Part shown: positions 1 through 9,862 of the stretch, one piece after another
Numbering within the stretch: position 1 is the first letter of the stretch
How the letters are laid out: every line of letters begins with the position of its first letter
IMG/VR virus record: IMGVR_UViG_2778261502_000003
Span: 1-9,862 of that record
Reading direction: 5' to 3' (one strand)
DNA: 9,862 nucleotides
Origin: a virus
Taxonomy: Duplodnaviria; Heunggongvirae; Uroviricota; Caudoviricetes
The notes under the pieces: model-generated
What the model was told of the DNA's origin: nothing
Database searches by the model: none
The model's input: the letters and a program-made list of their open reading frames with translations, nothing else
Position numbers and translations under genes: made by a program

Positions 1-897
1 TTAATCCAGACAGTTAGATTTTGCATTTTTGAACGTATACCTGTTTTGATGTAATGCTATGATCTCTTTAATATCATTTGCTGAGTAGCCATCAAGTTCA
101 ATTTCTGATATCTCACCTTCGATCAGCACGATTTTGGCTGTCTGATTACTGGATACCGTAGTAGATTTTGACTTGAGTGTCTTACGTCCTTTAATCAACC
201 ATGACCCGCCACCATCTTTGACCCAGTCAACAAGAGTCTCAGCCCAATGAGAACCTTTGAGTTTCAAATTGCCATCTTTGTTTTCAAAAATAGTGGTCAC
301 AGTATTTGCATTGGTATCTTTTTCAAGCTTCCGTAAATCATTGGTTAACGCTTGCTTACTGCTTCCGAAGATATTCGGAGTAATCAGCGTAAAGCTGACT
401 TTGTCGATAAATTGAAGCCTATGGTATTCTGACCAAAAATCTTCCATTTCAAGACAAGGCTCTATAAATATTCTAAGTCCTAACTGAGCCAAATAGTCGT
501 TATTGGCTAGATCTTCAAACGCTTTAGCAACTTGTTGCGCATCCTTGAAAACAGCGGTTTTCCTCTCAACCAGTAACACCTGCTCTACTTTGTCCCAAAT
601 CCATACGATAGGTGGATAGTTGTCTACATCGTACTCTCGAAAGTCTTTATCATGTCCTTTAATCTTTTGCAGCTTTGATATGACTCCAGCCATAACACCA
701 TCAGTAGGTTTTATGCTCAATTTCAGGGTGTAACTAGTTTTCTTATGAACGGAAGGTGTTGATGACGTCATGTGTAAATTTTTTGCAGCGATAACCATAG
801 CATTTTCAAAATGAGAGATATCTTTCTGAACAGTTCCTTTCGAAAAGAGGTCTGGATCGCGCGGTCTCATTAACACACGTAAGGCATACAACTGCAT
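1..897 (-). CDS. Hypothetical protein, 298 aa; integrase-adjacent prophage cargo gene of unknown family
   Basis: Complete minus-strand ORF (ATG at 895-897, TAA at 1-3). AGGAG Shine-Dalgarno about 7 nt upstream of the ATG. Visibly AT-rich compared with the phage structural genes. No HExxH motif (so not the Lit protease that e14 carries here) and no motif I can assign to a known family. Confidence 0.6.
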   Translation of the reverse strand: MQLYALRVLMRPRDPDLFSKGTVQKDISHFENAMVIAAKNLHMTSSTPSVHKKTSYTLKLSIKPTDGVMAGVISKLQKIKGHDKDFREYDVDNYPPIVWIWDKVEQVLLVERKTAVFKDAQQVAKAFEDLANNDYLAQLGLRIFIEPCLEMEDFWSEYHRLQFIDKVSFTLITPNIFGSSKQALTNDLRKLEKDTNANTVTTIFENKDGNLKLKGSHWAETLVDWVKDGGGSWLIKGRKTLKSKSTTVSSNQTAKIVLIEGEISEIELDGYSANDIKEIIALHQNRYTFKNAKSNCLD

Positions 898-973
898 AAG
901 AAAACTCCTGTAAACTATTTGGTTTCATTATTCCATAAAACCAAGCACTTTCAAGAGCTTAATTTTCTTTCAA

Positions 974-993
974 TTCTGTATGCATATACAGTA
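974..993. promoter_or_regulatory. Candidate LexA (SOS) box overlapping the putative promoter of the 298-aa gene
   Basis: Minus strand reads TACTGTATATGCATACAGAA: CTGT-N8-ACAG with an AT-rich spacer, 14/16 identical to the LexA core consensus CTGTATATATATACAG as I recall it. It lies in the gap between the integrase stop (1013) and the 298-aa gene start (897). A -35-like TTTACA (minus strand, plus coordinates 1005-1010) and a -10-like TATATG inside the box would place the operator over the -10. Confidence 0.5.
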
Positions 994-1012
994 TCATTCA
1001 ATTTTGTAAAAT

Positions 1013-1690
1013 TCAAACCTTGATTTTTGCCCATTCCTTACCACGATCATCATGGTATTTAGCTGTCTGGTTAGGCGATTTATGTCCCAGAAGTTTTTGG
1101 GTGTCGACGCCCTGAGCTTCGTAAAGTCGCTCAGATAAAGATCTTTGTTCATGGAATGTGGCGGGCGAACCTTCACCCCAGTCAATGCCTGCTAAATCCC
1201 TCGCTTTACTGAAATTCATCGTCAATGTATTGGCTTTTACTTGCGCGCCACGTTCAGCCTGTGAAGTAGTACGAAAAAAATGTACAAGGTATGGGCTGAC
1301 TGCATAGTCACGGCAGCGGGCTACTACATCGCGTAAACTCCAGTTAATTGCATTGAGGCGAAGGGAAAGCGGGATGGCGATTTTGCTCCCGGTTTTTTCT
1401 TGGATGACGTGAAGATGATCATCCCAAATATCGCTAAATTTCATACGTGAGATATCACCTAACCGTTGGCCGGTAACCAGTGCTAACAGCATGGCATTCC
1501 CCATATAACGATGGCGGGCATCTGCGATATCAAAGATTTTTTGCCATTCTTCAAGACTTAACCGTTGTCGGGTAATTTTTCTTCTGGGTTGTTTGGTTGC
1601 CAGTGCTGGATTATAGCCCGGAGGGACTTCCCCATAGTGTTGTGCCTCCTTGAATACATCAATTAGAACGGAGCGGACTACTTGCGCCAC
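1013..1690 (-). pseudogene. Lambda-family tyrosine integrase, C-terminal (catalytic-domain) fragment; N-terminal arm-binding/core-binding region missing
   Basis: Translation aligns block-for-block with the catalytic domain of lambda Int as I remember it: LALVTGQRLGDI (Arg box), KTGSKIAIPL, ATFHEQRSLSERLY (His/Arg box), LLGHKSPNQTAKYHDDRGKEW (Tyr nucleophile region). Only about 225 codons are present against roughly 350-400 for intact family members. The open frame begins at the junction with the terminase fragment. Confidence 0.85.
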
Positions 1691-1731
1691 CGGAGTGGTT
1701 CGCTGAAGAAGATCTCCCTCTCGCCACGATC

Positions 1732-2052
1732 ATGTGGCAACTGACAACCAAAGAACTCTGCGGTCAGGGCCTGCTGTGCGTGACTGACCTCGCGGTGCTT
1801 GAGCGGTGGTGCGTGGCCTATGAGTTCTGGCGACGTGCCGTGAAAAATATTGCCAGACAGGGCAACACCATCACCGGTGCAATGGGCGGCATGGTCAAAA
1901 ATCCGGAGCTGACCGCCAAAAAAGAACAGGAGTCCGAGATGAGCAGTACGGGGGCAATGCTCGGACTCGACCCCAGCAGCCGCCAGCGTCTGATTGGCCT
2001 GGCGGGGCAGAAGAAAGCCACTAACCCGTTTCTGAAAATTATCGAATCATGA
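1732..2052 (+). pseudogene. Small terminase subunit (P27/HK97-like), C-terminal fragment
   Basis: About 106 codons resembling the C-terminal half of P27-family small terminases. The stop overlaps the large terminase start in ATGA (2049-2052), the usual terS-terL coupling. The N-terminal half is absent; the frame is interrupted just upstream, next to the integrase fragment. Confidence 0.55.
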
Positions 2053-3782
2053 GCCGGAAATCTTACCCCAACGTAAATGCTGCAAATCAGTATGCCCGTG
2101 ATGTCGTGCGCGGAAAGATTGTGGCCTGCCAGTTTGTGATTCAGGCCTGCCAGCGCCATCTTGATGACCTGATGGCGGAAAAAAGTAAGTCGTTTCGTTA
2201 CCGCTTCGACAAGGACCTGGCTGAACGGGCCGCCAAATTTATTCAGCTGTTGCCGCACACCAAGGGTGAGTGGGCATTCAAGAGGATGCCTATCACGCTG
2301 GAGCCGTGGCAGCTCTTTGTGATCTGCTGCGCGTTTGGCTGGGTCAATAAAGGCTCCCGGCTGCGCCGCTTCCGTGAGGTGTATACCGAAATCCCCCGTA
2401 AGAACGGCAAATCGGCAATTTCTGCCGGTGTCGCCCTGTATTGTTTTGCCTGTGATAACGAGTTCGGCGCGGAAGTGTATTCCGGTGCCACGACGGAGAA
2501 ACAGGCATGGGAAGTCTTTCGTCCGGCAAGACTGATGTGTAAACGCACACCCATGCTGACGGAAGCGTTCGGGATTGAGGTTAACGCCTCAAACATGAAC
2601 CGTCCGGAGGATGGTGCGCGTTTTGAACCGCTGATCGGTAACCCCGGTGATGGTTCATCACCCCACTGTGCGGTGGTGGATGAATATCACGAGCACGCCA
2701 CCGATGCGCTTTACACCACGATGCTTACCGGGATGGGGGCGCGACGTCAGCCACTGATGTGGGCTATCACTACCGCCGGGTACAACATTGAGGGGCCGTG
2801 CTACGACAAACGGCGGGAAGTCATCGAGATGCTCAACGGCTCGGTGCCTAACGATGAACTGTTCGGGATTATCTATACCGTTGATGAAGGTGACGACTGG
2901 ACCGACCCGCAGGTGCTGGAAAAAGCTAACCCGAATATTGGCGTGTCGGTTTATCGCGAATTTTTGTTAAGTCAGCAGCAGCGTGCGAAAAATAACGCCC
3001 GTCTGGCAAACGTCTTTAAAACAAAACACCTCAATATCTGGGTGTCGGCGCGTTCGGCGTATTTCAACCTGGTGAGCTGGCAGAGCTGCGAGGATAAATC
3101 ACTGACCCTTGAGCAGTTCGAGGGGCAGCCGTGCATTCTGGCCTTTGACCTGGCGCGTAAGCTGGATATGAACAGCATGGCGCGACTTTATACCCGCGAG
3201 ATTGACGGTAAAACGCATTACTACAGTGTGGCCCCGCGTTTCTGGGTACCGTATGACACGGTGTACAGCGTCGAGAAAAATGAAGATCGACGGACAGCCG
3301 AACGCTTTCAGAAATGGGTGGAAATGGGCGTTCTGACCGTTACCGATGGTGCGGAGGTGGATTATCGCTACATCCTCGAGGAGGCCAAAGCGGCGAACAA
3401 AATCAGCCCGGTCAGTGAGTCACCCATTGACCCCTTCGGGGCGACCGGGTTGTCACATGACCTTGCTGATGAAGACCTGAACCCCATCACTATCATTCAG
3501 AACTACACCAACATGTCCGACCCGATGAAAGAGCTGGAAGCGGCAATTGAATCGGGGCGCTTTCATCATGATGGCAATCCCATCATGACCTGGTGTATCG
3601 GCAACGTGGTCGGCAAAACCATTCCGGGTAACGATGATGTGGTGAAGCCCGTCAAAGAGCAGGCGGAAAACAAAATCGATGGTGCAGTTGCGCTGATTAT
3701 GGCGGTTGGCAGAGCCATGCTGTACGAGAAAGAAGACACGCTGTCTGACCACATTGAGTCCTATGGGATCCGCTCGCTTTAA
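2049..3782 (+). CDS. Phage terminase large subunit (Terminase_1 / HK97-type)
   Basis: 577-aa ORF with a Walker A-like motif (PRKNGKS) and Walker B-like motif (AVVDEYHE) in the N-terminal ATPase region. Length and overall composition are typical of HK97-type large terminases. It is translationally coupled to the upstream terS fragment. High GC, typical of the phage backbone. Confidence 0.9.
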
Positions 3783-3793
3783 CTGAGGTAATT

Positions 3794-3976
3794 ATGATCA
3801 TGCTGATTCTCGCGCCTCTGGTGGGCGTGCTGGGGGCGCTTTTGCTGGCGTATGGTGCCTGGCTGATTTATCCCCCGGCGGGGTTTGTTGTTGCCGGGGC
3901 GTTGTGCCTGTTCTGGTCGTGGCTGGTGGCGCGATATCTCGACCGTACACAGTCGTCAGTCGGCGGAGGTAAATAG
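3794..3976 (+). CDS. Small hydrophobic protein (two predicted transmembrane helices), phage head-module ORF of unknown function
   Basis: 60-aa [56 protein letters not shown] Shine-Dalgarno upstream of the ATG. Its TAG stop overlaps the GTG start of the next gene (TAGTG). Confidence 0.45.
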
Positions 3977-4941
3977 TGTTCTTTTCGGGATTATTTCAAC
4001 GAAAAAGTGACGCACCGGTGACCACGCCAGCAGAGCTGGCGGACGCTATCGGGCTGTCCTACGACACCTATACCGGAAAGCAGATCAGCAGTCAGCGGGC
4101 CATGCGACTGACGGCGGTTTTTTCCTGCGTCAGGGTGCTGGCAGAGTCGGTCGGGATGTTGCCCTGCAACCTGTATCACCTGAACGGCAACCTGAAACAG
4201 AGAGCCACCGGCGAACGTCTGCATAAGCTGATTTCCACGCATCCCAATGGCTATATGACGCCGCAGGAGTTTTGGGAGCTGGTGGTCACCTGTCTGTGCC
4301 TGCGGGGAAACTTTTACGCCTACAAAGTGAAAGCATTTGGCGAAGTGGCTGAACTGCTGCCCGTCGATCCCGGCTGTGTGGTAACCGAATTTGCCGAACA
4401 GGAAGAAATTGCCTTTACCACCGGCGATGGTACCAAGAAGCCGAAAGGGTTCCTGGCGTATGAATCCACTGATGAAACCGATAAGGTCCGGGCGTTCGGC
4501 AAACTTCAGCATATTGTATCCGGCGAAGCGACGGCGGTGACCGCAGACGCCATTATCAAACTGATTTACACGCTGCGTAAGGCACACCGCACTGGCGCGA
4601 AGTTCATGATGAACAACAACAGCCTGTTTGCCATCCGTCTGCTTAAAGACAGCGAGGGTAACTATCTGTGGCGTCCGGGGCTGGAACTGGGGCAGCCGTC
4701 CTCTCTGGCGGGTTACGGTATCGCTGAAAACGAACAGATGCCGGATATCGCCGCTGATGCGAAAGCCATTGCATTTGGTAACTTCAAACGGGGTTACACC
4801 ATCGTTGACCGTATCGGCACCCGCATTCTGCGTGACCCGTACACCAATAAACCGTTTGTCGGTTTTTATACCACCAAGCGCACCGGCGGGATGCTGGTCG
4901 ATTCGCAGGCCATCAAACTGCTGAAGATTGCAGCGGCGTAA
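3976..4941 (+). CDS. Chimeric ORF: HK97-family portal N-terminus fused in frame to HK97-fold major capsid protein C-terminus (deletion derivative, probably non-functional)
   Basis: GTG start with a GGAGG Shine-Dalgarno 7 nt upstream. Residues about 1-140 look like a portal N-terminus (SSQRAMRLTAVFSCVRVLAESVGMLPCNLY ... GNFYAYKV). Residues about 180-321 look like a major capsid C-terminus (YLWRPGLELGQPSSLAGYGIAENEQMPDIA ... AIAFGNFKRGYTIVDRIGTRILRDPYTNKPFVGFYTTKRTGG ... AIKLLK). At 321 aa it is too short to be either protein, and no prohead protease is present. Confidence 0.65.
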   Translation: MFFSGLFQRKSDAPVTTPAELADAIGLSYDTYTGKQISSQRAMRLTAVFSCVRVLAESVGMLPCNLYHLNGNLKQRATGERLHKLISTHPNGYMTPQEFWELVVTCLCLRGNFYAYKVKAFGEVAELLPVDPGCVVTEFAEQEEIAFTTGDGTKKPKGFLAYESTDETDKVRAFGKLQHIVSGEATAVTADAIIKLIYTLRKAHRTGAKFMMNNNSLFAIRLLKDSEGNYLWRPGLELGQPSSLAGYGIAENEQMPDIAADAKAIAFGNFKRGYTIVDRIGTRILRDPYTNKPFVGFYTTKRTGGMLVDSQAIKLLKIAAA

Positions 4942-4947
4942 TCACTC

Positions 4948-4975
4948 AGGGGCGCGGAACCGCGCCCCCTGTTCT
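4948..4975 (+). terminator. GC-rich hairpin downstream of the capsid-fusion ORF (possible intrinsic terminator)
   Basis: AGGGGCGCGG-AA-CCGCGCCCCT is a perfect inverted repeat (4948-4969) followed by GTTCTG. The U-tract is weak, so efficiency is uncertain. Confidence 0.35.
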
Positions 4976-4988
4976 GACGGGTGAAGAA

Positions 4989-5204
4989 TCATGATCCTGA
5001 AACAAGATCTGAAATGGTCACCGGACGGTAAACCTTTGCCAGTTCCGGGTATTCTTCAGCAGAAAAAGCCGCACCATTGCATTTTAGCCAGCCTGTTGGC
5101 GGAGTGGCGGAAGGCCACGGGACAGGCACACCAACGGGTAATGCCGAACCTTCTCCCAAACCAACGTTTATGAAAATGCAGAAATAACGAGCAAATGGCA
5201 TCAT
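4989..5204 (-). pseudogene. Tail-fibre variable-region fragment (Stf / Mu S-type), stub of the invertible segment
   Basis: The minus-strand ORF contains LPVGVPVPWPSATPPTGWLKCNGAAFSAEEYPELAKVY. This is the PWPS...GW..C.G..F....YP.L motif that opens the variable C-terminal part of Mu S / P1 S / e14 Stf tail fibres. The reading frame stops about 45 residues later and no constant N-terminal part is present. Confidence 0.45.
5151..5176. other. Candidate pix/gix-like recombination site (crossover site of the Pin invertible segment)
   Basis: TTCTCCCAAACC-AA-CGTTTATGAAAA is two imperfect inverted 12-bp half-sites around a 2-bp core. The left half matches 10/12 to the gix half-site TTATCCAAAACC recalled from memory. 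It sits where expected, between the tail-fibre variable-region start and pin. Confidence 0.3.
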
Positions 5205-5230
5205 TCCTGCTTTTGTCAGAGGGATCCACT

Positions 5231-5422
5231 ATGCTTATTGGCTATGTACGCGTATCAATAAATGACCAGAACACAGATCTACAACGTAATGCGTTGAACT
5301 GTGCAGGATGCGAGCTGATTTTTGAAGACAAGATAAGCGGTACAAAGTCCGAGAGCCTAGGGCTGACAGTGCTGTTCTTGATGCAAATTAAAGGATTTAA
5401 TAGTGAGTTGCGGCCTTACTAA
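5231..5422 (+). pseudogene. pin: Serine DNA invertase (Pin/Gin/Hin family), N-terminal fragment
   Basis: MLIGYVRVSINDQNTDLQRNALNCAGCELIFEDKISGTKSE matches the N-terminal catalytic block of Gin/Hin/Pin invertases, including the catalytic serine in YVRVS. Similarity is lost after about 45 codons and the frame runs into unrelated AT-rich sequence. The ORF track's 5195 start is an in-frame upstream ATG; ATG 5231 is the likelier native start. Confidence 0.75.
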
Positions 5423-5433
5423 TGTAAGGCCGC
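5410..5433. terminator. Perfect 10-bp-stem hairpin between the convergent pin stub and the GmrSD-like gene (likely bidirectional terminator)
   Basis: GCGGCCTTAC-TAAT-GTAAGGCCGC is a perfect inverted repeat, followed on the plus strand by the T-rich TATAATCATTTTATT. It lies 23 bp from the stop of the minus-strand gene. Confidence 0.4.
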
Positions 5434-5455
5434 TATAATCATTTTATTAATTGCA

Positions 5456-7345
5456 TTAATCGTATTTTGGCCATACTTTCAATGCAATTTCCCCCAACTT
5501 TTTACCTCGCTCCAGTATTTCACTCTCATCCCATTTATCCTTAAGTATAAGTGGTATGTTCAGTCGTAGATTGGTGTGGACGATGAGAGCATCACGTTTT
5601 TTCAGAAATACAGCATTCTGAACGGAACGGTTTACGCTAAGGTTAAGCAAAGTTAGATTTCCCAACGTAGCTATCGTTTGTTGCCGTTTCCTTACCAGTA
5701 GCTGTTCAGGGGTAAGATCGGTTCCAGACAGAACAATTTGGTTCATTACCGTAGCATCTGAATTTGTCACCATATGACCATTTTCGAGAGGCCAACAGGA
5801 ATACCAACTTTGAGGCATAAGATGATCGATATCGAGATTAGAAAGATTTGGAACATCAGGCTTTTCTGTCTTCACTTGGCGACAAAGTTCTCTTTCAAGT
5901 TCCGTTAACATTGAGCGCATTTTCGGTGCGTCGAGCCTGCCAGGATAAAGTGGAGCATTGATGCAAGCGTTGAGAAATTCTGAGTCCCCAGGCCAACGTG
6001 AGGCTTCGCCATTTAAGCTATTGAGGATATTACGTAACTCAATACTGGAAATTTCCGTTTTAGACAAGTGTCGCAATACATTCATAAATACATTGTTGTA
6101 ATTCTTTGGCGTCAGGCCACATACGGATCTTCGTACTACGTAGGAGACAAGATCATTATACATGGCTGCTTTCTCATCATCGGCGATGTTAGCTATCGAA
6201 ATGAACAAAGCAAGCGGATAGAGTGTCGTCACATCATAGGCTGCGATGCGATGTCCAAAGTGTGAGATGGGGGTTGTGCCAAAACCACCAACCAATTCTT
6301 TATATTGTGATGCATATTGTTTGAGGCGCTTTACTTGCAGATCTGCTCGTTGTGAAGGCAAGTCCTTACTTACATAATCACGATACTCATTGTAAAGGCG
6401 AGACAGATCAATTTCACGCTGCCTTTCTGATTGCAATGTCGCATGTACAAGCCACTCCATGCGTGGTTTATTAATACGTCCACGGCGTTGCTTTTCCGAC
6501 CAGTATTTATCTTCAAAGATCTTCCACTCATTTTCATATAATTCAATAGTATTAATATTTTCATGCTCAGCGCACATAAAGATATAGTTGCGAATAAGAT
6601 CCGTTGCATGAAGTTCCGCTCCTCGCCCATTTAATGTTTCAAAAATTATTTGGGCATCATCTTCAGCTTCGAGAAATATGCTTACCAGTTTCAGATCCGT
6701 CAAGACAGCCTCAATTAGTGCTACAGCATTTTCTTGTGGTGAGCGGTTTTCTATTTTAATCCATTTTATAAAGGCTTCAGTAAAAAACCATAATGCCTCT
6801 AGTGACGGCGGGTGGTTGAAATGTTTACGTAACGTACCATGTTGCGTGAAGCTATCAGAAAATACATTACGGAGATCGTCAATATTATCAACATTAAGAC
6901 TTTGAATAAAATGAGTTTGATCTCGAAAAGTTGGCCACAGTTTGAAGCATTCTACCTTTTTATTTCTCATCGTTGCTTCGTTTGTATTTTTCAAGCAAGT
7001 CAATACTAACCCTTCCAGTTCAGAAAGGCCTGTAGCACGCAATGATAATCGAATGGATGCCAGAATATATTGAAGAGTGGTTAAACGTTGCTGGCCGTCA
7101 ATAATATGTATGGTATCTACACCTAACAAGCTGTTTTTGAGTTGAGGTTCCAGCACCACCGCGCCGAGGAAATGAGGGGTTGGTTTTGTTCCCGAAAGTC
7201 GGCTCTGTGCTTTTTCGAAGATATCCTCCAGCAAAGCTGACCATTGGTTTCGTTGCGTCCATACGTAGGCACGTTGATAGAATGGAACACGATATTGTCG
7301 TTGATTTTGGAAAATTTGCTGGATGGTTAGCGTTTCGGATTTCAT
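5456..7345 (-). CDS. GmrSD-like Type IV (modification-dependent) restriction endonuclease; DUF262 (ParB-like NTPase) N-terminal domain plus DUF1524 (His-Me finger nuclease) C-terminal domain
   Basis: 629-aa ORF. N-terminus has the DUF262 signature: FYQRAYVWT, then IHIIDGQQRLTTL (DGQQR at residues 83-87, plus-strand 7085-7099). C-terminus has the DUF1524 signature: DIDHLMPQSW (His codon at 5822-5824), then LGNLTLLNLSVNRSVQNAVFLKK. AT-rich and convergent with the pin stub. The architecture matches GmrSD, BrxU and SspE. Confidence 0.8.
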   Translation of the reverse strand: MKSETLTIQQIFQNQRQYRVPFYQRAYVWTQRNQWSALLEDIFEKAQSRLSGTKPTPHFLGAVVLEPQLKNSLLGVDTIHIIDGQQRLTTLQYILASIRLSLRATGLSELEGLVLTCLKNTNEATMRNKKVECFKLWPTFRDQTHFIQSLNVDNIDDLRNVFSDSFTQHGTLRKHFNHPPSLEALWFFTEAFIKWIKIENRSPQENAVALIEAVLTDLKLVSIFLEAEDDAQIIFETLNGRGAELHATDLIRNYIFMCAEHENINTIELYENEWKIFEDKYWSEKQRRGRINKPRMEWLVHATLQSERQREIDLSRLYNEYRDYVSKDLPSQRADLQVKRLKQYASQYKELVGGFGTTPISHFGHRIAAYDVTTLYPLALFISIANIADDEKAAMYNDLVSYVVRRSVCGLTPKNYNNVFMNVLRHLSKTEISSIELRNILNSLNGEASRWPGDSEFLNACINAPLYPGRLDAPKMRSMLTELERELCRQVKTEKPDVPNLSNLDIDHLMPQSWYSCWPLENGHMVTNSDATVMNQIVLSGTDLTPEQLLVRKRQQTIATLGNLTLLNLSVNRSVQNAVFLKKRDALIVHTNLRLNIPLILKDKWDESEILERGKKLGEIALKVWPKYD

Positions 7346-7601
7346 TGTTTACCTATAAATAACATTAAGTGACATTCTACAAGAGTAAGAAATTCATCTG
7401 AGTCAGAACAATCATTTTTATGTAGTTATGATACAGTGTATTTGTTACTGGTGAAGTAAAAATAAGAAACCCCGCTTTTGAATGCTGACGCGCTACGGTT
7501 TCATTGGATATTTTTTGTCTCTCCTCCATCCCGTTGGTGTTCTGTTTAGACTGATAACTTGCTGTTTTAATTGATATTAGTTTCTTGCGCCGCCCAATCA
7601 T

Positions 7602-7635
7602 GGTTGGTGGGTTGGTGGGTTGGTGGGTTGGTGGG
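7602..7635. repeat. Perfect tandem octanucleotide repeat (GGTTGGTG)x4 plus a partial unit
   Basis: Four exact head-to-tail copies of GGTTGGTG at 7602-7633, followed by GG. A degenerate GTTGGTG also occurs about 70 bp away (about 7533). It lies in the non-coding region upstream of the GmrSD-like gene on the minus strand. The G-rich strand has four GGG runs. Confidence 0.9.
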
Positions 7636-8162
7636 AGTTAAATCCACATTGGTATGAATAACATAGAATATGAATTAGTGTTTCAGAATTGCTTCAGCCA
7701 TCACTTTTTAATACGTTCAATTTGAATGTTTATTTCCGAAACAATTTTTTCAGGTTTCAGTCCCTCGTTAGATTGCACAAAATCTCTAATTTGCATCATT
7801 CGATGTGCACAAATTTGTAATTCGCTATAAACACTTAGCTCGTCAGATTCATTTTGAGATTGTTCACCTGTTTAAAATTCTACATAAGTATGTGGCGGAT
7901 TGTGATAAACACGAGAAATCGGGGTTGGCCACCATTCCTCACCGGTCACTACGTCCGCATCGAATAGTACAGTTTTGTCAATTTCCATTAATTTCTGGAT
8001 AAGAACAGAAGTTTTCAAGCGAACCTCCATTTTGCCATAAAGTGGTTATCAAAACGCTACGTAAACTATACAAAATCAGCGAGTTATGGTGAAGGTAAAA
8101 AAACAAGTTTAGATGTTCGTTAAGTATAAAATTGTTTTAATTCAATTGGATATAATAATTTT

Positions 8163-8335
8163 CTAAATCTAATGTTACGCCATATGGGCTGGACTGAAGC
8201 CGCAGACCTGATTGTTAAAGGTATGGAAGGCGCAATCAATGCGAAGACCGTAACCTATGACTTCGAGCGTTTGATGGAAGGCGCTAAACTGCTGAAATGT
8301 TCAGAATTTGGTGATGCGATCATCAAGAACATGTA
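8163..8335 (+). pseudogene. icdC: icd 3'-terminal fragment (icdC-type remnant created by prophage integration into isocitrate dehydrogenase gene); marks attR
   Basis: Translation [54 protein letters not shown]-stop matches the C-terminal ~55 residues of E. coli isocitrate dehydrogenase as I remember them, with two substitutions. The sequence upstream of about 8163 is unrelated AT-rich DNA, so only the 3' end of the gene is present. Confidence 0.85.
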
Positions 8336-8359
8336 ATCACTACATGTGTTTAATATTGC

Positions 8360-8391
8360 AACGGGCGTATAACACGCCCGTTGTTTTATTT
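8360..8391 (+). terminator. Rho-independent terminator of icd
   Basis: AACGGGCGT-ATAAC-ACGCCCGTT is a perfect 9-bp stem, followed by TGTTTTATTT, 25 bp after the icd stop codon. Confidence 0.7.
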
Positions 8392-8438
8392 ATGTAGGTA
8401 TTATTAATAGCATATCGAGCATATTTATATAAAACCCT

Positions 8439-8762
8439 TTACTTGAGCCCATATGGGCATATTTTTATAATGCAACTATTATGCAAACATTTATTTGTTA
8501 TTTTGCTTTCTCCTGGAGGACACTCTTGACTGCTTTTGAGTAGACTCCATAAATCCTTGTTGAATGGTGCGATGTTATAAATAGTAATAGGATATTCTTT
8601 ATCTTTAAGGATAATTCCAGATTTAACCGGTGTAAATATACTGCCAGGAGGGAGAAATATAGTAGATTGATACCAGATGATCATTTTCATATTACCCCAT
8701 ATGGCTGAAAAAGATATGCCGCATGAAGGTTGAATTATCGTGTCAATTACTATCCACTTCAT
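8439..8762 (-). CDS. iraM: Anti-adaptor protein IraM (RpoS stabiliser, PhoPQ-regulated)
   Basis: 107-aa [35 protein letters not shown]...ICPYGLK matches my recollection of E. coli IraM (YcgW) nearly residue for residue. Its position immediately downstream of icdC and upstream of ycgX matches K-12 synteny. Very AT-rich. Confidence 0.8.
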
Positions 8763-9219
8763 TTGTTATGTCTTATCCCACGGTATTTAATATAGTTCAT
8801 TTGGATGTTCATTTCTTTATTTTGCATATGAGTATATTACCCCTTCAAAAAATAAATTAATTAAAACGATTGCTTATATAAAACAAAATTTAAAGCAAGG
8901 AATCTCAATGGATGTTAAACAAAATGAGATTTAGTGAAAACAATAAATTATTCACTTCGTTTTAGATTTGTTTAGCTATAATGTTATACATTCAAATGAC
9001 TGAACATCCTGTAATTAAAGCATAGCCTTTATGCTACTTTGTGCCAATTTGCTAAACATTATGGTTGCCTTTTTATATAACGATAATAATGAATATAAGC
9101 ATGACATGAGAATAAGGTTTCAATTTTTGAGTTATATAGGAAAGGTTTAACCTGTTCCTGGCTAAAATACATATAACTGGATGATGACTAAACCAAAACA
9201 CATGTGCGTTAAGTATTGA

Positions 9220-9250
9220 AACGGGCGTATGGCACACCCGTTGTTTTTAT
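9220..9250 (+). terminator. Orphan second copy of the icd-type terminator hairpin
   Basis: AACGGGCGT-ATGGCAC-ACCCGTT (one mismatch in the stem) followed by TGTTTTTAT. Together with its 5' flank (ACATGTGCGTTAAGTATTGA), about 50 bp are clearly homologous to 8343-8392. No plus-strand ORF precedes it. Confidence 0.45.
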
Positions 9251-9457
9251 AAATATATTAACCGTTATAAAATAACGTATAGAAAGTCAAGTGATCACAT
9301 TTCAAATATCAATTTGATAGTATTGGCATGGTGATTATTTATGGGTAGCAATAAAAGGACAGTATTTATCATCCATAGGGATAGTCTCTGTACTTTTATT
9401 CCCATTATGCTAATGCCTTACTGAATTATGAAGCATTTCTTAAGCATCCAACTTTAG

Positions 9458-9862
9458 CTAGATTAATGGTTTATTATTTTCTACATCTTCAATATATAAA
9501 AGCGTATTATCAATGGCGTAGTAACTGCGTTTGTTATGATTAACATCAGTAACCCAACGGAAAACGCCCGCGCCTGCTAGTGTTGAACAGTATTCCCGAA
9601 ATGTAGATTTTCCGCAAATATGAAGCAATGCGGCCTCTTTTATTTTAGCAGGGTTCTTGGTCGTACTAACTTTTAACAGGTTCCTGGTTCCTCTTAATAA
9701 CAAAACCGTGTCATCGTGAGTAATAATTCTGATGTTATCCGTAGCCAGATAATAAATGTAATGTGCAATACGGTGATGTTTTAATTCTGAATAAAACCAG
9801 GAGAAGTTTTGCTCTTTTCTCACTTGCTCAAACATCTTTTGAAAAACAACGACCTGATCCAT
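9458..9862 (-). CDS. ycgX: YcgX-like DUF1398 family protein
   Basis: 134-aa minus-strand ORF whose ATG is the last three bases of the window. Sequence and position (next gene after iraM) match E. coli ycgX as I recall it. If the true start lies further upstream it would be outside the window. Confidence 0.7.
   Translation of the reverse strand: MDQVVVFQKMFEQVRKEQNFSWFYSELKHHRIAHYIYYLATDNIRIITHDDTVLLLRGTRNLLKVSTTKNPAKIKEAALLHICGKSTFREYCSTLAGAGVFRWVTDVNHNKRSYYAIDNTLLYIEDVENNKPLI

Follow-up and report, generated by a model that had tools for sequence, protein, structure and literature searches.

Introduction

Integration of the element e14 and of phage 21 into icd, the isocitrate dehydrogenase gene, with duplication of the 3' end of that gene, is textbook knowledge (PMC6379469, PMC12803456). 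According to Hill et al. 1989, as summarized in PMC6379469, the left and right attachment sites (attL and attR) of e14 in Escherichia coli K-12 duplicate the icd transcript's 3' end as direct repeats around foreign DNA, and the element brings a replacement end while the old end is left as a relic at the right. Both features have a likeness in the bracket around iraM, the gene of a PhoPQ-controlled anti-adaptor that stabilizes RpoS, in the stretch of DNA analyzed here: a window of 9,862 nucleotides (IMG/VR virus record IMGVR_UViG_2778261502_000003, positions 1 to 9,862; all coordinates are window positions) from an E. coli chromosome, in which it forms the right end of an e14-like prophage. The original prediction for this DNA, made from its letters alone, was that two copies of the icd terminator segment flank iraM as the trace of an older integration at the same attachment (att) site. 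Our analysis favors this reading, with a probability of about 0.7: the two copies would be successive icd transcript 3' ends left by serial site-specific integrations at icd.

In the paper describing the related anti-adaptor IraL (PMC4045071), iraM is placed "on the e14 prophage" and is reported to be absent from uropathogenic E. coli (UPEC) CFT073. That placement is imprecise, as iraM lies outside the right junction of e14 in an older bracket of its own, of which no published description was found in a full-text literature search. The result presented here is an evolutionary reconstruction and no new mechanism; integration of e14 and 21 at icd is known, and the iraM bracket is what is new.

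Two copies of the icd terminator flank iraM

A direct repeat of 43 nt (84% identity, spacing 860) was identified by repeat search between 8345-8387 and 9205-9247, and gapped local alignment of 8342-8388 with 9200-9247 gave 48 columns, of which 41 were identical, with five substitutions and two one-base indels. The alignment score of 57 lay far above those of shuffled sequences (20.9 +/- 2.6, maximum 29, n=300), which bears out the predicted ~50-bp direct repeat containing the icd terminator. Homology takes in the loop, both 8-bp stem arms and the T-run, and reaches ~17 nt beyond the stem on its 5' side (ACATGTG.GTTAA.TATTG). Because the pre-stem nucleotides and the T-run are similar as well, the repeat is more than a generic hairpin, and in the WL297-type haplotype described below the similarity runs on into the last four icd codons and the stop. 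Copy 1 (8342-8392, plus strand), with its hairpin at 8358-8384 and T-run, was defined by repeat search, alignment and terminator prediction, and copy 2 (9200-9251, plus strand) by repeat search and alignment. Another match, between 8113-8127 and 9202-9216 (14/15), was judged to be at chance level.

The DNA between the copies (8393-9199) is as AT-rich as had been claimed for this ~810-bp interval (29.9% GC over 8393-9204 vs 46% in the prophage part of the window), and genome counts given below identify it as a unit whose presence or absence goes together with that of one repeat copy. It carries iraM (8439-8762, minus strand; 107 aa, RefSeq WP_001307134). No inverted repeats were found at the interval ends in the window repeat search, and a transposon, a miniature inverted-repeat transposable element or a cassette borne by an insertion sequence (IS) was rejected, as terminal inverted repeats are absent and a 48-nt imperfect direct repeat is no target-site duplication.

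Copy 1 sits directly after icd in prophage-free strains and is their working icd terminator. Its stem of 11 pairs, followed by TTTATTT, folds at -20.5 kcal/mol (z = -5.4; minus strand -18.4), and it was called an intrinsic terminator by prediction, with a folding range of -15 to -20 kcal/mol; it could also terminate the convergent iraM transcript. The combination of a GC-rich stem-loop and a U-tract that marks an intrinsic terminator is found in copy 1 only. Copy 2 of the window reaches -9.9 kcal/mol (z = -1.1) and received no terminator call, and a G-to-A change in its 3' arm breaks one stem pair on the plus strand. These lesions vary by lineage, with both partners of one pair hit in the K-12 type and the T-run broken in others. 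Whereas the copy 1 stem was intact in 29/29 surveyed loci, at least one lesion was present in 27/27 retrievable versions of copy 2. In the JMK lineage copy 2 is intact, and its ancestral identity to copy 1 amounts to 45/51 aligned columns (~88%). Copy 2 is the older copy, a decaying relic.

The 7-nt terminator loop occurs in both orientations, GTATAACAC and GTGTTATAC, on an unchanged stem; flipped loops were seen at position 2469 of locus L033 (copy 1 of the JMK lineage), at 2525 of L010 (phage 4B5) and at 383 of L011 (C. amalonaticus).

The repeat matches the icd module of integrating phages

When 185,579 species genomes (one per bacterial species) were searched with a degenerate hairpin pattern, 13 stretches matched, and in 12 of them the C-terminus of the icd product is encoded beside the match. 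The thirteenth, from a metagenome-assembled genome of Christensenella (L021), has no adjoining icd and looks like a chance match. The hairpin is no dispersed repeat; it is confined to icd-linked sites. The module by which icd-integrating phages rebuild the gene that they interrupt includes this terminator: in phage 21, in phages 4A7 and 4B5 and in an O157 prophage, a 165-bp icd' segment, the same terminator, arm-type repeats and the integrase gene int stand in this order, and from the spacer to the T-run the versions of phage 21, 4A7 and the O157 prophage depart from copy 1 at only a few bases. For the phage 21 attP, Wang et al. reportedly described in 1997 ~209 bp of homology with the icd transcript end. 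In its sequence (OL657228), an icd-like pseudogene and the same terminator as copy 1 are followed by three YYTTCCCCAAAA sites and int. At e14-type left junctions, including that of the K-12 e14, three GTTATCAAAA repeats come after the terminator, and the K-12 P arm has one more. Judged by sequence comparison, what is repeated around iraM is the distal portion of the icd 3' module found beside int in phage 21- and e14-type elements.

The degenerate right flank of copy 2 (9248-9300, plus strand) aligns collinearly with the P' arm, with its three GTTATCAAAA repeats, which comes after the phage-borne terminator in e14-type elements. BLAST comparison of the copy 2 region with e14-type left junctions gave 76-78% identity over 74-75 nt. 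For the 53-nt flank alone, in the form common to K-12 and E2348, only 0-2/5000 shuffles reached the score obtained against the e14 arm; the window's own flank allele is a weaker match, with 23-481/5000 shuffles reaching it. Phage 21 differs from the iraM bracket in this respect, since motifs of its arm type (YYTTCCCCAAAA) were not found anywhere in 8390-9460, including beside copy 1 and copy 2, and the copy 2 flank resembles an e14-type arm instead. Copy 2 and its flank may be the relic left junction of a still older e14-like element, or the chromosomal source from which the arm of e14 was taken; either origin makes copy 2 the older icd end.

The iraM interval is present or absent as one repeat period

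The interval is carried by 3944/5426 complete E. coli genomes (73%), and a single-copy junction, in which one terminator is joined to the copy 2 flank, occurs in 1039/5426 (19%), including enteropathogenic E. coli (EPEC) E2348/69. In E2348/69 and others, icd is followed by a single terminator, the copy 2 flank, ymgL and ycgX, and exactly one repeat period (860 bp) is gone. A second copy standing in its usual place in strains without iraM would have refuted the original prediction; the cleanly iraM-less genomes hold one terminator copy, not two, and empty sites with a single repeat copy exist in the same 1039 genomes. The direct repeats thereby explain the strain polymorphism, about a quarter of E. 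coli strains being without iraM. Loss by another route is seen in an O157:H7 genome, where a phage-21-type prophage follows icd, the downstream region is missing and iraM has gone in a larger deletion.

Insertion sequences have also entered this region. IS1 was found at ~8428 (L013 1393; L024 ~5040-5097), the same point ~35 nt right of copy 1 in two collections, and other genomes have IS1 in or near iraM. In strain MIN9 a deletion beside IS1 removes iraM through part of pdeG. L013 and MIN9 had been considered as intermediate states and are actually IS1 insertions, in MIN9 with an adjacent deletion. In GPEC996 (L045 ~1740), IS200C lies right at the T-run of the icd terminator, and this IS was met elsewhere in the region (e.g. 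hits H9 and H17).

A divergent haplotype retains a larger remnant and an icd stub

Nineteen genomes (e.g. WL297; L042 20007-26566, also L041 and L031) share a ~20% divergent haplotype in which the distance from icd to ycgX is 6.5 kb and a 6.3-kb remnant is retained at the same place. Its order is icd, terminator, e14-type flank, a 455-aa open reading frame (ORF), an IS5 fragment, trkG, an iraM-like gene (74% aa identity), a ymgB-like gene (ymgB/ariR-like), the copy 2 equivalent and ycgX. The trkG gene is known from the Rac prophage, and TrkG matches phrog_1916. In the copy 2 equivalent, ATCAAGAATATGTTAA...AACGGGCATATAACACGCCCGTTG, the last four icd codons and the stop (ATCAAGAATATGT-TAA) are kept in register with the terminator, so that the repeat comprises 66 nt in the WL297 type and 48 nt, terminator only, in the window. 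Against an icd 3' profile, the WL297 alignment starts 12 nt before the stop codon and those of the window and K-12 ~6 nt after it; relative to the WL297 type the window lineage lacks ~235 nt, the stub included. The divergent block (16-24%) runs from iraM to mid-ycgX, with the breakpoint inside ycgX and at least 95% identity beyond it. The arrangement of iraM, an icd-derived terminator and ycgX therefore predates the split between the haplotypes, and the WL297 allele is either imported or retained since a deep split.

IraM belongs with proteins of prophage cargo

The IraM translation gave a 100% tblastn match to annotated iraM genes and matched phrog_4407 over its full length (E = 4e-52). Precomputed PF11183 hits exist for IraM homologs, and a live Pfam scan of IraM gave no hit at E <= 0.01; on these matches the window gene is assigned to the IraM/PmrD-like anti-adaptor family. 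Lambdoid and Stx prophages carry paralogs of 57-71% identity, placed between stx or Q on one side and nanS or a holin gene on the other. YcgX (DUF1398) matches phrog_413, and a 70% identical paralog is encoded between lysis and terminase genes in an E. albertii prophage. The earlier suggestion that iraM is cargo of a previous element gains support from this family membership and from the paralogs carried as lambdoid prophage cargo, and the gene resembles prophage cargo that has been domesticated, left behind at the hotspot of integration in icd.

In several Stx and other lambdoid prophages (L007 4001-4324, L025-L030) the gene of the IraM paralog runs opposite to its neighbors, which are stx2B (or lpxR or Q) and a nanS-like esterase gene. 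Prophages of enterohaemorrhagic E. coli (EHEC) may modulate RpoS stability through these paralogs.

IMG/VR was also scanned for a phage carrying iraM beside an icd-type attP, with loci L047-L075 surveyed further. The best 80 loci were of two kinds, one with 92-100% identity, in which the distance from the match to the end of the contig is constant and like that in the window, and one with ~64% identity, like that of the Stx-phage paralogs.

A nest of icd ends and a proposed history

E. coli strain E4, 99.9% identical to the window, served as the matching annotated genome (RefSeq). At the left end of its prophage, icd with its working terminator comes first, then a small ORF, an integrase fragment and a decayed pseudo-icd (L004 30263-30410; 81% identical over 148 nt) that contains in-frame stops and has a hairpin of its own and GGTTATCAAAAC; intE and the cargo genes of the prophage come only after this. 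It seems that a still younger element has inserted at icd and since decayed. Serial integration at icd leaves such nests, as is seen in this window-matching genome, and at least three, probably four, generations of icd ends stand in a row in the E4 chromosome.

The bracket around iraM can be read in the same way. A phage of e14/21 type would have integrated and replaced the icd end, pushing the previous end rightwards, and copy 2 with its flank would be such an older end. The next element, with iraM as attR-proximal cargo, would have brought an icd end finishing in copy 1; subsequent deletions would have removed nearly all of this element and the displaced icd coding stub, leaving ~810 bp with iraM. 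The gene lies just inside the older junction, in the slot taken by mcrA in the K-12 e14 and by the GmrSD gene in the resident prophage. Later, the resident e14-like prophage would have displaced the copy-1 end, producing the icd' pseudogene at 8172-8336. In some strains, recombination between the icd-adjacent terminator copy and copy 2 would then have removed iraM precisely and left one hybrid terminator.

Weighing the alternatives

Serial integration is supported by the presence of the terminator in the phage module, the one-copy empty sites, the icd stub of WL297, the family to which iraM belongs and the larger remnant at the same place. Several observations weigh against it. The window repeat covers only the terminator end of the ~210-bp att homology, without the 165-bp icd coding segment, and it is the model rather than the repeat that would have the old element share the e14/21 crossover core starting at 8172. 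No more than 15 nt of icd, the stop among them, are kept even in the best-preserved haplotype, a search with the icd 3' profile for a longer pseudo-icd left of copy 2 returned nothing past these 15 nt, and every haplotype found has lost the relevant DNA on the left of copy 2. Right of copy 1 there are no arm-type motifs. No integrase or excisionase ORF was found in 8393-9199 or in the 6.3-kb WL297 remnant, so that the iraM interval is at most a remnant, not an element, and the left part of the WL297 remnant (e14-type flank, 455-aa ORF, IS5 fragment) may come from a later element. AT-richness is not limited to the bracket, as it runs on past copy 2 (29.5% GC over 9248-9457, 36.5% in ycgX), and the interval had been said to contain only iraM, which is indeed there, while RefSeq annotation of a near-identical genome (L002 9916-9960 minus 901) adds the 14-codon ymgK at ~9015-9059 on the minus strand. 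Similarity of iraM DNA to the phage paralogs (72%) is restricted to the coding sequence, and the interval has no homology to phages beyond this and the terminator. Lastly, none of the loci searched served as an informative outgroup in which the DNA downstream of icd is unoccupied: in E. albertii NBRC 107761 a phage-21-type remnant comes next to icd, Escherichia sp. MOD1-EC7003 provides only ~800 bp past the terminator, partly a 21-type junction, and in the Citrobacter loci an e14-type flank is followed by IS or non-coding DNA. The relatives of YcgX in other Escherichia are encoded within prophages or at unrelated loci, and the BluR orthologs of Citrobacter and Pseudocitrobacter do not adjoin icd. 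The polarity of gain and loss consequently rests on parsimony.

Some of these points would be met if the iraM segment had entered through a different att, the terminator hairpin or the last few icd codons, by means of an unrelated integrase, which we regard as unlikely. The core would then be the 8-bp inverted arms with the 7-nt loop and the 48-66 bp repeat the whole att duplication. Read directly from the sequence, the geometry of the hairpin fits a tyrosine-recombinase core; the indel is exactly one repeat period, the loop is flipped in JMK copy 1, phage 4B5 and C. amalonaticus, and the repeat, whose left boundary is 12 nt before the stop codon in WL297 and +6 after it in the window, never reaches back to 165 nt before the stop. 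However, the segment has no associated recombinase gene or remnant, boundaries that differ between haplotypes fit deletions better than a fixed att, every extant element found with the terminator also has the full 165-bp icd', and template switching at a hairpin is also expected to flip its loop. A further proposal, which we consider a long shot, is that the DNA from the icd stop to mid-ycgX may be a stack of at least three to four generations of icd-targeting prophage relics whose regulators were recruited by E. coli. In its bolder form the hairpin (8-bp inverted arms, 7-nt loop) would itself be a recombination site, through which the 860-bp iraM cassette could still be precisely gained or lost; this would account for both the clean polymorphism and the flipped-loop variants. 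It is very improbable that site-specific integration played no part, with the repeat arising by local duplication of the terminator and illegitimate insertion of AT-rich foreign DNA, or copy 2 being independently selected as a minus-strand terminator for ymgL-ycgX. Consistent with such a role, the minus strand of the window's copy 2 folds at -13.4 kcal/mol, the G-to-A change becoming a G-U pair, and no int remnant is present. Nevertheless, the homology spans non-stem positions, icd codons stand in register in the WL297 type, the copy 2 flank matches an e14-type arm and the hairpin is confined to icd-linked sites; moreover, copy 2 of the K-12 type is mismatched on both strands, the T-run is broken in several lineages and the minus-strand tail, UUUCAAUACU, reads as a poor U-tract.

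Polarity is a separate matter from the origin of the repeat. The empty state could be ancestral, B2-type iraM-less strains never having had iraM and the 860-bp cassette having been gained, perhaps repeatedly, by homologous exchange with a two-copy donor. In the right-flank tree a B2-like iraM-less clade (E2348/69, AHB12, WP4-W18) is indeed the first branch among the main haplotypes, and the single copies lack the changes specific to copy 2 (loop GG, CG insertion). We find this account doubtful, as in the ~20% divergent WL297 type iraM stands at the same place with respect to copy 2 and ycgX, whereas the flank of the B2 strains shares 96% identity with iraM-positive flanks, and as the iraM-less GPEC996 groups with an iraM-positive haplotype. 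Likeness to copy 1 is moreover expected after repeat-mediated deletion, terminators being under selection, with the crossover in the 15-nt tract CACGCCCGTTGTTTT that both copies share in JMK-like ancestral forms. Secondary loss, by recombination between the terminator next to icd and copy 2, is the probable origin of the iraM-less strains; it is favored on parsimony by the grouping of GPEC996 and by the presence of iraM in the deeply divergent WL297 type. As the icd ends of iraM-less strains resemble phage-borne versions, iraM may have been lost during the shedding of a prophage.

Surroundings of the bracket and the resident prophage

From left to right the window contains the tail genes of the prophage, the GmrSD gene, the P arm, the icd' stub, copy 1, iraM, ymgK, copy 2, ymgL and ycgX. 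The GmrSD-type (DUF262/DUF1524) type IV restriction gene (5456-7345, minus strand; 629 aa) occupies the attR-proximal cargo slot, which in the K-12 e14 holds mcrA, defence genes being swapped at a fixed position. The P arm has an exact GTTATCAAAA match at 8045-8054 on the plus strand, a putative arm-type integrase site; over the whole window the count of GTTATCAAAA is no higher than chance. The icd' pseudogene at attR (8172-8336, plus strand) represents the last 54 codons of icd; it is in the ORF list and is annotated in RefSeq as partial isocitrate dehydrogenase. In prophage-free genomes the match to the window starts only at 8172 or 8178. Crossover of the resident prophage took place at ~8172, 165 nt before the icd stop and ~190 nt upstream of the copy 1 hairpin; we take the e14/21 core sequence to be ATGTTACGCCATATGGGC. 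A 10-mer, CCATATGGGC, lies at 8180-8189, a few bases into the icd' stub beside the start of icd homology, and probably near the e14/21 core. It occurs again at 8447-8456, inside the palindrome GCCCATATGGGC at the 3' end of iraM, as an inverted pair; this recurrence may be chance, and the iraM copy is coding sequence.

Right of copy 2, the small ORF ymgL (9295-9405, minus strand; RefSeq) lies outside the bracket and is retained in iraM-less genomes, and the prophage-type gene ycgX (9458-9862, minus strand; Pfam PF07166, phrog_413) reaches the end of the window. Many IMG/VR prophage predictions (L047-L074) stop exactly 1100 nt past the iraM start, at the ycgX start codon, and the window end at 9862 is the same stopping point, so that such predictions run through iraM to ycgX and take in ~1.5 kb beyond the prophage attR. 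In Citrobacter and Pseudocitrobacter (L127-L131), the bluR-bluF-ycgZ-ymgA-ariR module was found in unrelated chromosomal contexts away from icd, and its place beside icd in E. coli may itself be secondary.

Discussion

A concrete origin is offered here for iraM, and its published placement on e14 is corrected. Strain variation in iraM bears on differences in the stress response to low magnesium, and the findings are of moderate relevance to the evolution of RpoS control. The seemingly chromosomal DNA right of icd appears to be layered prophage debris, which is relevant to the calling of prophage boundaries.

IraM, the "iraM" of Stx2 phages and IraL, encoded on the potB island of CFT073 (PMC4045071), belong to one family (phrog_4407, PF11183), and all three are single small genes in mobile DNA on the strand opposite to their neighbors; chromosomal iraM differs from the phage paralogs in having lost all phage context. 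Compared with e14, cargo sits just inside attR in each case (mcrA in K-12 e14, the GmrSD gene in the window, iraM in the old element). Unlike e14, the iraM bracket has kept the terminator only (48 nt, or 66 nt in one haplotype) out of ~210 bp, and the element, shrunk to 0.8 kb, has no int, xis or structural genes.

Tandem or nested accretion of islands at one hotspot is best known for tRNA genes. As at those hotspots, the reused site at icd leaves a stack of direct repeats derived from att, the youngest nearest to the target gene. In contrast to tRNA hotspots, the target at icd is a protein-coding gene with its terminator, and at least three, probably four, generations are stacked within one genome.

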